Positions 35,057-39,178 of a stretch of 64,000 bases of DNA are shown piece by piece. Below the pieces are notes generated by a model. It was not told where the DNA came from. It saw only the letters and a list, made by a program, of their open reading frames with translations, and did no database searches. Origin of the DNA: an uncultured Pseudomonadota bacterium (GTDB lineage Bacteria; Myxococcota_A; UBA796; GCA-2862545); assembly GCA_913061235.1 (NCBI GenBank), contig CAJXTB010000025.1, positions 1-64,000 of the forward strand. The letters are read 5' to 3'. Each line of letters begins with the position of its first letter. Position 1 is the stretch's first letter. The position numbers and the translations under genes were made by a program.

Positions 35057-35680
35057 TCACCAAATCTGAAGCGCGGTTTGCGAATTAGTATCTGCGTGAC
35101 ACGCCGTTACCATCCACACGCGGCTCGCTCCTTCCTGAAGCAAGGCTAGGGCGCATGCCTCAGCGGTTGCGCCCGTTGTAAAGACGTCATCTACGAGCAA
35201 GACGTGCGGTGGTACTTGGCGACGTCCGGTGACACGACCCGCAAGGTTGAGTCGCCGCTGCACACGGTTCAGGCCGGCTTGGTGGCGAGCTCCACGCACA
35301 GACAGTGCTCGAATGTTGGGCCGGCCGAGGGCGCGAGCAACGTCATCTGCGAGAAGTGTGGCCAGCTCGAACCCCCGCCGAAAGCGTGTCCATGGGGTAC
35401 TCGGCACCGCAACCACGGCATCAATGTCGCTGGGGGAGAGGTGGCCGCGACACGCTGTGGCCATGCGGGCAGCCAACCGCTTCCCAAGATGCCGGTCAGG
35501 GCGGTACTTGACCTGTCGAATCACTGTTCCCAAGGGCCCAGCGTACTTTGCCATGTGCCAAGTGTGGGCCACGCCGTCCACCTGTGTGGTGACGTCATGC
35601 AGCTCATCAGGTGCGCAGTCTAGGCAGACCCGGTGCCCGAGCACGTCACAGCCTACGCATGTATGTGGCCACCAAGCCAT
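35057..35680 (-). CDS. comF: ComF-family protein (Zn-finger + phosphoribosyltransferase domain)
   Basis: N-terminal CVGCDVLGHRVCLDC. PRTase motif VLLVDDVFTTGATAEACALAL. Confidence 0.8.
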   Translation of the reverse strand: MAWWPHTCVGCDVLGHRVCLDCAPDELHDVTTQVDGVAHTWHMAKYAGPLGTVIRQVKYRPDRHLGKRLAARMATACRGHLSPSDIDAVVAVPSTPWTRFRRGFELATLLADDVARALGRPNIRALSVRGARHQAGLNRVQRRLNLAGRVTGRRQVPPHVLLVDDVFTTGATAEACALALLQEGASRVWMVTACHADTNSQTALQIW

Positions 35681-35899
35681 GTTTCCCTCCGTTCGCCTAC
35701 ATCACATGGGTGCCGCGCCGTGGTCGGAAGTGAAGGGGGAGCAGTGCCGTTTTGAGGTTTTTCCTCCGCCACCCGTCCGACCGATGAACCGCAACCCCAT
35801 GCAACAGACGGCGTCCCAACACTCCTTCGGCCGGTGCGAGCAAGGTTCTCCGTCCGCGACTGCTGCACGTGGTATTTTTGCCGCCGGGAGTACAGATTC

Positions 35900-38341
35900 A
35901 TGCGCATTCTCTGGTTGGTTGTTTTTGCTGCGGCATGCCGCGCCACCCTGCCTTCGGCAGACACGACTCAAGACGCAGATGGCGATGGCGTGCTGGTCGG
36001 TGACGACTGCAATGACACAGATCCTCTCGTCTTTCCGGGGGCTGTTGAGTCGTGCAACGGTGTGGATGACGACTGCAACGGTGCCATCGATGACATTGGC
36101 GAGGGGCAGGGCACAGCGCTGTACGCGGACTCCGACCAAGACGGCTACGGCGAGGGCGAGCCCATCTACGCGTGCGAAGCCTTTGATGGCGTCACCGAGC
36201 TTGCCGGCGACTGCGACGATTCAGACGGCTCCATCTTCCCCGGTGCACCAGAACCCGACTGCACCGACACCGTCGACCGCGACTGTGACGGCTTTGCCCC
36301 AGCTGAAGACGCCGACGAGGACGGCTTTGCCGCCTGCGAAGACTGCAATGATGACGACGCGAACGTGCGTCCGGGTGCGGTCGAGCGCTGCAACGGCGTG
36401 GATGACGACTGCAACGACCTGATCGACGATGATGCCGTGGATGCCCCCATCTGGTACCGCGATGGTGATGAGGACGGCTTTGGCGACGCAGACCAGACCG
36501 AGGCCGCTTGTGACGCCCCCGAGGGCTTTGTCGGGAGCAGCGCTGACTGCGACGACACCAACCAGGACATCCGACCCGGCGCTGACGAGACCTGCGATGG
36601 CGTGGATCAAGACTGCGACGGCGGAGTCGACGAGCAGTCTATCGACGCACCCCAGTGGTTCGCGGACTCCGACGAAGACGGCTTTGGCGGACCGCTGTCG
36701 GTGCGCGAGTGCTCAGCTCCAGCTGGCTTTCTGGCAGAAAGCACCGACTGCAACGACCTGGACCCGCTCGCCTTCCCGAACGCCCCCGAGACGTGCAACG
36801 GCGCCGACGATGACTGCGACCAAGTCGTAGACAACGACGCTGTCGACCCGACCACTTGGTATGCCGACCCGGACGGTGACAGCTGGGGCGATGCCTCCAC
36901 CGGCACCACCGCCGCTTGTGTGCTGCCTGACGGCTTTGCGGTGCGCAATGGCGACTGTGCCGAAGGCGACGCAGGGGTGAACCCGGGTGCTGTCGAGACG
37001 TGCAATGGCATCGACGACGACTGTGACCAAGACATCGACGAGAACGCCGTCAACCGCGACACGTTCTATGCGGACAGTGATGGCGACGGCTACGGCGACG
37101 CCCGCTTTGCCGTTCTCGCCTGTGCGCTTCCCGACGCACACGCGGACAATGCTGACGACTGCAATGACGGCCTGGCCAGCGTCAATCCCATGGCCCCCGA
37201 GCGCTGCAACGGCATTGACGACGACTGCAACAGCGAGATTGACGACGACCCCATTGACCTCGCGTCGTTCTACCGAGACACCGATGGCGACGGGTACGGC
37301 GTGGCAGGCGATGTCACCGAGGCCTGTGACGCGCCGGACGGCTACGTCGCAGATGCCGGTGACTGCGCTCCTGACGACCTGTCCGTGTTCCCGACAGCCC
37401 TCGAGCTGTGCAACGGCGTGGACGACGACTGCGACGACGAGATGGATGAGGACGCCGTCGACGCACCCTCTTGGTACGCGGACGTAGACGGCGACGGCTA
37501 CGGCGGCGAGCGCTTTGTGGAGGTGGCCTGCGACCAGCCGGAGGGCTTCTTCGCGGAGGCCGAGGACTGCGACGACCTCGATAGCGACGTCTCACCCGAG
37601 GCTGTGGACGTCTGTGGGGATGGTATCGACCAGGACTGTGACGGCGAAGACCGCACGGGGATCGATGGCGGCTCGCCTGAGTGCGCCGCCATCAGCTGCG
37701 CGGCGATCCTGGAGACTGACACCGAGAGCCCCAATGGTGCCTACTGGATCGACGCAACCGGGACGGCTCCCGTCGAGACGTGGTGCGACCAGACGGGTGG
37801 CGGCTGGACGCTCGCCTTTGTGAAGAACTCGGTCGACCAGAACGACTACGGCGACTTCGGCAGCGGCTACGTCCGTACCGAGAACCTTACCGTGGATCCT
37901 GCGGACGCCTCAGCAGCGTCGGTAGGCATGTCGGGCTGGATGGACATGAACGAGGCGTCTTGGACCGAGCTGCGCATTCACAGCTACCGAAACGGCACCG
38001 AGAGCTTCCGGAGCGACGTCATTGACCGCGCCTCCCTGCGCATCGACTTTGGTCAGGACGGCTACCTGTTGTACGGCGAGCACGGCTATTTTTGGTGCGG
38101 CGGCGACGCCAGCTACACGGACGCCGGCCGAGGCCAGGTCAATCGGCCATCTGGAGCCCCAGCGGACTGCAAGGGACACGGCAGTCTAGGCGACGGATGG
38201 GACTTTTCGCGCGTGACCCGCACGAACAGCGGCCTGACATTGTGTGGGGCGAGCGCCAGCCGATGGATGCATGACGCCTTTGCTGGCGTGTGGGTCTACT
38301 ACCCGAATGCAGGCGCCGCTCACGCCCTGTGGGTGCGCTGA
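35900..38341 (+). CDS. lipoprotein with ~12 tandem MopE-type Cys-rich 'putative metal-binding' repeats and a C-terminal fibrinogen-related-like domain
   Basis: Lipobox MRILWLVVFAAAC. Repeats of DxDxDGxxxxxDCDDxDxxxxPGAxExCNGxDDDCD. C-terminal SCAAILETDTESPNGAYWIDATGTAPVETWCDQTGGGWTLAF resembles the FReD core (SCxxIL..G.Y.I...VYCDM.TDGGGWTV). Confidence 0.75.
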   Translation: MRILWLVVFAAACRATLPSADTTQDADGDGVLVGDDCNDTDPLVFPGAVESCNGVDDDCNGAIDDIGEGQGTALYADSDQDGYGEGEPIYACEAFDGVTELAGDCDDSDGSIFPGAPEPDCTDTVDRDCDGFAPAEDADEDGFAACEDCNDDDANVRPGAVERCNGVDDDCNDLIDDDAVDAPIWYRDGDEDGFGDADQTEAACDAPEGFVGSSADCDDTNQDIRPGADETCDGVDQDCDGGVDEQSIDAPQWFADSDEDGFGGPLSVRECSAPAGFLAESTDCNDLDPLAFPNAPETCNGADDDCDQVVDNDAVDPTTWYADPDGDSWGDASTGTTAACVLPDGFAVRNGDCAEGDAGVNPGAVETCNGIDDDCDQDIDENAVNRDTFYADSDGDGYGDARFAVLACALPDAHADNADDCNDGLASVNPMAPERCNGIDDDCNSEIDDDPIDLASFYRDTDGDGYGVAGDVTEACDAPDGYVADAGDCAPDDLSVFPTALELCNGVDDDCDDEMDEDAVDAPSWYADVDGDGYGGERFVEVACDQPEGFFAEAEDCDDLDSDVSPEAVDVCGDGIDQDCDGEDRTGIDGGSPECAAISCAAILETDTESPNGAYWIDATGTAPVETWCDQTGGGWTLAFVKNSVDQNDYGDFGSGYVRTENLTVDPADASAASVGMSGWMDMNEASWTELRIHSYRNGTESFRSDVIDRASLRIDFGQDGYLLYGEHGYFWCGGDASYTDAGRGQVNRPSGAPADCKGHGSLGDGWDFSRVTRTNSGLTLCGASASRWMHDAFAGVWVYYPNAGAAHALWVR
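35950..37660 (+). repeat. intragenic tandem array of ~210-bp units encoding MopE-type Cys-rich repeats
   Basis: Recurrent tgcaacggcgtggatgacgactgcaac-type units about every 200-220 bp. Confidence 0.7.
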
Positions 38342-38350
38342 GGGGCGGTG

Positions 38351-39178
38351 CTAGCGAACGACGAGCACGTCTTTCGAAGAGGAGCGGACCAAGCGCTCGG
38401 CCGCTGAGCCCAGCACCAAGCGCGACAGACCCGTGCGACCATGGGTCGGTATGACGGTCAGGTCAATGCCCGCATCTTGAGCGTCGTGCGCAATGGCCTC
38501 TCCGGCGTTCATCTCGCCACGAACCAGAATGAAGCGTGGCAGGCCGTTGTGGCCCTCCGCCTCCAGTGCGTTCGCTAGCGCAATCTCAGCGCGTTCGTAC
38601 TCCGAGTCACCCTTTCCAGGGCCTTGGCCTCTGACCTTTGTCCACGGCAGGGCGTACACGGCGGAGGCATGCGCCTGTGGCAGGTGTTTGAGGACCCACT
38701 TGGCCCCGGCCAGGTTGGGTTCATTGATGTCGACTGGCAGGCGGACTTTGGTCTTGCCCTTGGTGGAGACCGGAAGGCCGCCTGGAGGCATGACCAAGAC
38801 GGGCACCGGGGCGTGGCGCATCATGCCCTCGGCCACCGAACCCAAGAACAGGCGACCGGTAGCGGTGCGATGCCGCGTGCCCATGGCCAGCACGTCGTAG
38901 GTCACCGCATGTGTAGCGAGTGCCGCGACAACGTCGGGTCCAGACAGGACGTGCCTACGGCCGCGGACTTCATCGGGAATCTCGAACAACAGGGCATCGA
39001 GCCATGCGCCCACCGCGGTGGTTCCAGTGCCCGCGTTTTCGTCCGGGGAACCCATTACGACGGTGACCAAGTCTAGGCGAGCGCCCAACAGTTTGGCCCA
39101 TGCGGCAGCGCGTGCGACGAGTCCAGATGGATTGTGTTCCGGTGCCACCGACACCAACAGTCTGCGTTCAAAGGACAT
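38351..39178 (-). CDS. universal stress protein, tandem UspA domains
   Basis: Two Usp halves. C-terminal motif PTHGRTGLSRLVLGSAAERLVRSSSKDVLVV and an earlier AMGTRHRTATGRLFLGSVAEGMMRHAPVPVLVM. Confidence 0.8.
   Translation of the reverse strand: MSFERRLLVSVAPEHNPSGLVARAAAWAKLLGARLDLVTVVMGSPDENAGTGTTAVGAWLDALLFEIPDEVRGRRHVLSGPDVVAALATHAVTYDVLAMGTRHRTATGRLFLGSVAEGMMRHAPVPVLVMPPGGLPVSTKGKTKVRLPVDINEPNLAGAKWVLKHLPQAHASAVYALPWTKVRGQGPGKGDSEYERAEIALANALEAEGHNGLPRFILVRGEMNAGEAIAHDAQDAGIDLTVIPTHGRTGLSRLVLGSAAERLVRSSSKDVLVVR

Follow-up and report, generated by a model that had tools for sequence, protein, structure and literature searches.

Innate immunity in animals uses fibrinogen-related domains (FReDs) and intelectin domains as core pattern-recognition lectins. 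FReDs are predominantly metazoan, and to our knowledge the origin of FReD and intelectin domains outside animals is poorly documented. The ligands of this superfamily also include peptides and proteins (fibrin knobs, Tie2, LAG-3), and one member, the procollagen C-propeptide, acts in trimerisation as its driver. A bacterial family has already been named "fibrinogen-like" by NCBI on the basis of a short curated model (NF040941, "GGGWT_bact, fibrinogen-like YCDxxxxGGGW domain"), and full-text searches of the literature found no paper on this bacterial family or on NF040941. The window analysed here, a stretch of DNA of 64,000 nucleotides, encodes a MopE-repeat protein whose C-terminal domain passes this model and is predicted to extend it to a complete fibrinogen-like fold.

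Gene structure and genomic context

The translation of positions 35834 to 38341 on the forward strand contains SCAAILETDTESPNGAYWIDATGTAPVETWCDQTGGGWTLAFVKN, followed by CGGDASYTD and GDGWDFSRV, and thus includes all of the peptides quoted in the initial annotation, beginning with SCAAIL. ATG 35900 was preferred over GTG 35834 as the start of the gene because of the Shine-Dalgarno-like sequence 9 nt upstream of it (Table 1), and the same 813-aa gene was called independently on the ENA metagenome contig TREM17-1_SAMN05416785_METAG-scaffold_50. The gene is apparently monocistronic, being flanked upstream by a divergent ORF and downstream by a convergent ORF that ends 9 nt away. Scans of positions 35600-38500 for promoter and terminator consensus sequences gave no match, and no second copy was found in the window. 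The seven ORFs neighbouring the gene had a relative in none of 71 related loci, and operon-based inference of function was dropped for this reason. Cluster tables gave no name for the window protein or for its key relatives.

Table 1. Features of the MopE-repeat gene and its product (positions in the window)
Feature	Coordinates	Strand	Evidence
Whole gene, 813-aa MopE-repeat protein with C-terminal fibrinogen/intelectin-like domain	35900..38341	+	ORF map
Shine-Dalgarno-like GGGAG	35886..35890	+	Read from sequence; 9 nt 5' of ATG 35900
Signal peptide with lipobox-like end, MRILWLVVFAAAC (Cys13)	35900..35938	+	Sequence
Acidic Cys-rich stalk, 585 aa, 9 MopE-type repeats	35939..37693	+	Pfam PF11617, repeat dissection, composition
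C-terminal globular domain, 215 aa, residues 599-813, predicted fibrinogen-like superfamily fold	37694..38338	+	
A-subdomain-like module SCAAILE...WCDQTGGGWTL	37694..37813	+	NF040941, PDB profile matches, hhalign
Most conserved block of the family, GYFWCGGDASYTDAGRGQVNRPSGAPADCKGHGSLGDGWDFSRVTRTNSGLTLCG, candidate ligand/metal-binding region	38084..38248	+	Alignment columns

Signal peptide and MopE-repeat stalk

The signal peptide ends in a relaxed lipobox (AAAC) that misses the strict L-[AS]-[GA]-C form and presumably fits a permissive PROSITE-type rule. Lipobox-like motifs (LLLLAC, LLLAGC and similar) lie 5' of the domain in most related loci, where they are clearer than in the window copy, and several homologues carry such a motif at the N-terminus (alignment A1). 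The window protein is probably lipid-anchored, a putative lipoprotein, and an extracytoplasmic location is suggested by the signal and lipobox sequence, the lipobox-like motifs of most related loci, the 42 Cys residues of the protein and its acidic stalk.

The stalk consists of repeat units of about 68 aa with the pattern [WF]YxDxDxDG[YF]G ... DC[ND]D ... PGAxExCNGxDDDC, and PF11617, the MopE-type metal-binding repeat, matched it in nine stretches with 224.2 bits (E 1.2e-67) against a gathering cut-off of 27 bits. The initial annotation had placed the domain at the C-terminus of a MopE-repeat lipoprotein, and the domain does end a protein that has MopE repeats and a signal peptide of lipobox-like type, but 12 repeats had been counted where eight canonical cores and one degenerate core are found here. 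Acidic residues predominate strongly (172 Asp and Glu versus 14 Lys and Arg), and 36 of the 42 Cys of the whole protein fall in the stalk, the C-terminal domain having six. The units share 40-53% amino-acid identity pairwise, indicating that the repeats are old and diverged, and at the DNA level the stalk contains no tandem array, with only a trivial 21-nt match in two copies.

A C-terminal domain related to intelectins and FReDs

The bacterial model NF040941 matched residues 599-638 over profile positions 1-45 of 46, with 43.6 bits (E 2e-11) for the C-terminal 227 aa and 40.2 bits for the whole protein, above its curated cut-off of 30 bits. Pfam assigned no family at all to the window domain at E up to 10. 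The single domain searched by phmmer against PDB sequences recovered XEEL alone (E 0.011). A family profile built from 48 homologues recovered intelectins first, at E 4e-12 to 7e-8 (7e1e 4e-12, XEEL 4e-9, human intelectin-1 5e-9), followed by tenascin, fibrinogen and ficolin at E 1e-6 to 1e-4, and these matches span only the A subdomain of about 45 residues, with the exception of the lamprey lectin 7e1e, for which the match extends further. Comparison of the family with a 14-sequence intelectin profile by hhalign gave a probability of 96.8% (E 2.2e-10). Against fibrinogen gamma C, human intelectin-1 and the intelectin profile, hhalign aligned 42-47 A-subdomain columns each (42 only for fibrinogen gamma C) and none elsewhere, with 24-36% identity to the animal proteins over the roughly 45 alignable residues; of the two single-sequence targets, both human, the intelectin-1 sequence was validated.

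As judged from these searches, the resemblance to intelectins and FReDs is far above chance, which bears out the FReD-like character first proposed for the C-terminus. Intelectins, rather than ficolins or fibrinogen, are its closest known relatives, and the A-subdomain-like module appears to be the only part of the domain for which a sequence alignment with animal FReDs and intelectins can be made. The span originally given for the domain, 37678-38341, holds at its end, where the stop codon finishes at 38341, but not at its start, as the Ser of SCAAIL is encoded by codon 37694-37696, which position 37678 precedes by 16 nt and with a frame offset of one base.

Structure prediction places the C-terminal domain in the fibrinogen-like fold superfamily, which comprises FReDs, intelectins and COLFI, and beyond the first 45 or so residues the domain is predicted to keep this fold while having diverged past sequence recognition. 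The AF2 model of the domain has a pLDDT of 96, and domain residues 157-180, which contain no regular secondary structure, are nonetheless modelled with high confidence. The domain is conserved along its whole length in the family alignment, with 14 of the 17 invariant columns falling within the most conserved block, the 55 residues from 729 to 783 of the protein, a candidate ligand- or metal-binding region. This block is located in the C-terminal third of the domain, which is also the position of the P subdomain in FReDs. Both CGGDASYTD and GDGWDFSRV, which had been placed in plausible FReD positions, lie inside it, but they could not be aligned to FReD motifs by any sequence method. As the hhalign matches are limited to A-subdomain columns, the block cannot be matched to residues known to bind Ca2+ or ligand: no sequence method aligned it with the FReD P subdomain or with the Ca2+/ligand residues of intelectins, and hhalign located no counterparts in the bacterial domain of the human intelectin-1 ligand residues, which we take to be N260, E262, H263, E274, W288 and Y297.

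Distribution and architecture of the family

The family is small, with 71 related loci in high-GC genomes at 38-55% identity, and the loci with a taxon label belong to Myxococcota, including Plesiocystis pacifica SIR-1. Nannocystaceae ST9 also has a homologue, and about 60 cluster representatives carry the domain at full length. The MAG labels 'Klebsiella pneumoniae', 'Enterobacterales' and 'Rickettsiales' were rejected as being at odds with the 65-79% GC of the loci that carry them. The related loci also contain stop-to-stop ORFs as long as 1100-1650 aa, which were likewise set aside as high-GC artefacts; when read from plausible starts, the mature proteins measure roughly 220-800 aa. The domain forms the extreme C-terminus in 72 of 72 copies checked, the stop being preceded by a tail of the type ...A[IL]W[VL]R, and the regions it is combined with are without exception extracellular modules of stalk or adhesion type (MopE, TSP type 3, EGF, Big_5/He_PIG and DUF4215). 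In one relative the domain occurs together with DUF4215 and two C-type lectin domains. The A module, of about 45-60 residues, was also found without the full domain in other proteins, in 3-15 copies.

Proposed function of the C-terminal head

The explanation favoured here, with moderate confidence, is that the gene encodes a lipid-anchored acidic stalk presenting a fibrinogen/intelectin-like ligand-recognition head, which is probably glycan-binding. The protein would be extracytoplasmic and probably held by the lipobox-like Cys that ends its signal peptide, followed by the very acidic, disulfide-rich stalk, whose DxDxDG-like motifs would probably bind Ca2+ and which would present the globular head. 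The first 45 or so residues of the head, consisting of a helix, two strands and the CD(M/Q)..GGGWT strand, are homologous to the A subdomain of animal FReDs and, most closely, to that of intelectins. By analogy to ficolins, intelectins and cyanophage proteins, the most likely role of the head is recognition of a ligand, probably a carbohydrate, with putative binding through its invariant, loop-rich C-terminal third (WCGGD...DCKGHGSLGxGWDFS...N.GLTLCG). A recognition role is suggested because the domain is always C-terminal and carried on extracellular stalks, because its invariant columns cluster in a loop-rich block, and because it has a cyanophage tail-fibre-like match.

The head could instead be a protein-binding or self-association module, resembling the trimerisation nucleus of the procollagen C-propeptide or the receptor-binding head of angiopoietins, and would then help a social bacterium to adhere to other cells or to a matrix. 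This is conceivable but unlikely. Many members of the FReD superfamily bind proteins, adhesion-type repeats are found among the partner regions, and COLFI (PF01410) gave weak matches in 11 of the 48 family members, of 19-22 bits in close homologues, and matches of 47-107 bits in distant relatives. These Pfam matches are, however, confined to profile positions ~27-70, corresponding to the shared A-like segment, with no match in the window protein (gathering cut-off 26.2 bits), and the structural alignment to the bacterial domain covers 110 residues for COLFI as against 171 for intelectin-1. The relative with two C-type lectin domains also places the domain in a context of glycan recognition.

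Less probable again is a canonical FReD, that is, a PF00147 member of the ficolin type, in which a Ca2+-stabilised P subdomain carries an acetyl-group pocket that binds GlcNAc or sialic acid. The search against PF00147 (Fibrinogen_C) that had been suggested for this domain gave no match with an E of 10 or below, whether the whole 813-aa protein or only the last 227 aa were searched. The A-subdomain motif does match in the family: PF00147 found 25 of 48 members with an E no higher than 10, the lowest being 8.4e-8, the homologues P0006, P0011 and P0002 scored above the gathering cut-off of 22 bits (32.7, 31.8 and 29.8 bits), and more distant relatives reached 54-76 bits (P0150 75.8, P0128 54.4). 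The best match in every relative scanned nevertheless covers only profile positions 2-72 of 221, the A subdomain, and the B and P subdomains (positions ~60-221) were unrecognisable by sequence in any family member scanned, the hallmark P-subdomain motifs of FReDs being unalignable. Intelectin-1, moreover, surpasses any ficolin or fibrinogen, both structurally and by sequence. The initial annotation would have given up a FReD-like domain if PF00147 failed to match and the fold was also unlike that of FReDs; only the former was found, the predicted fold being fibrinogen-like, and the proposal therefore stands by that rule.

Given the failure of the window copy against PF00147 and the predominance of FReDs in animals, one might also think of a motif that arose by chance on some generic beta-sandwich of unrelated origin, of contamination with eukaryotic DNA, or of a gene recently transferred from an animal. 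These readings are effectively refuted. Three independent profile methods gave E-values of 1e-8 to 1e-12, the contig is 94.9 kb long and its ORFs near the gene match the PHP, Usp, MFS and Fe-ADH families, and the GC content of 0.65 in the gene region is close to the 0.61-0.64 of its surroundings. The family also occurs across its high-GC loci, Myxococcota where labelled, and only about 45 residues are alignable to any animal protein, at low identity.

Implications of a ligand-recognition head

A more specific form of the glycan-binding explanation is put forward only tentatively and is doubtful as it stands: the full 215-residue 'GGGWT + WCGGD...CKGHGSLGxGWDFS' head may be an intelectin-related lectin of prokaryotes that depends on Ca2+, used by predatory or social Myxococcota for glycan recognition on other microbes, with a related fold on cyanophage tail-fibre-like proteins. 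If this is true, the head would be a bacterial counterpart, and possibly the ancestor or an ancient donor or recipient, of the FReD and intelectin lectins with which animals mount innate immunity, and the architecture of its binding site would differ from both. The domain (residues ~587-813) provides an expressible target for asking whether this fold reads glycans in bacteria, and it raises the further question of whether common ancestry or gene exchange connects the domains of bacteria and phages with the lectins of animals. The practical value is modest, consisting of a lead for lectin discovery and of improved annotation, as NF040941 could be extended to the full domain, and no new mechanism is involved.

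Comparison with known systems

The novelty implied in the initial annotation was overstated, as this very motif of bacteria is the subject of the curated NCBI model, whose name has already been given in NCBI records to two homologues, P0013 and P0041 (Myxococcota and Polyangiaceae MAGs); given this naming, the window domain is a lead for lectin work rather than a new kind. The analysis indicates, from the predicted structure, that a compact bacterial family keeps the whole fold beyond the annotated motif. The NF040941 model is 46 residues long, whereas here the module opens a full globular domain, and the window copy reads WCDQ.GGGW where the family consensus is CDMxTxGGGW.

Intelectins or X-type lectins (human intelectin-1, 4WMQ; Xenopus XEEL, 4WMO; lamprey serum lectin, 7E1E) contain an N-terminal fibrinogen-like segment that is matched by the window family. 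They are chordate proteins with a carbohydrate-recognition domain of about 280 residues, large decorations and three Ca2+ sites, in contrast to the smaller domain of the myxococcotal family, and nothing aligns past ~45 columns even when profile is compared with profile. The animal FReDs (PF00147: ficolins, fibrinogen beta/gamma C, tenascin, angiopoietins, FGL1) share the C-terminal position of the bacterial domain but are carried on stalks of collagen, coiled coil, EGF or FN3, in place of which MopE repeats are found here, and COLFI, the fibrillar procollagen C-propeptide, is a less complete match than either intelectin or FReDs.

Among viruses, the best matches by structure are cyanophage proteins predicted to have a fibrinogen/NC1-like fold (P-HM2 E3SSV2, S-CAM8 R9TQT3, S-ShM2 E3SJT6 and metaG-MbCM1 H8ZN14, 'phage tail fiber-like'), which Foldseek recovered at E 2.8e-8 to 1.5e-3 with TM up to 0.53, E-values better than those of any PDB match. 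This likeness is one between predicted structures only, at 12-16% identity, and the cyanophage proteins represent another non-animal use of the fold.

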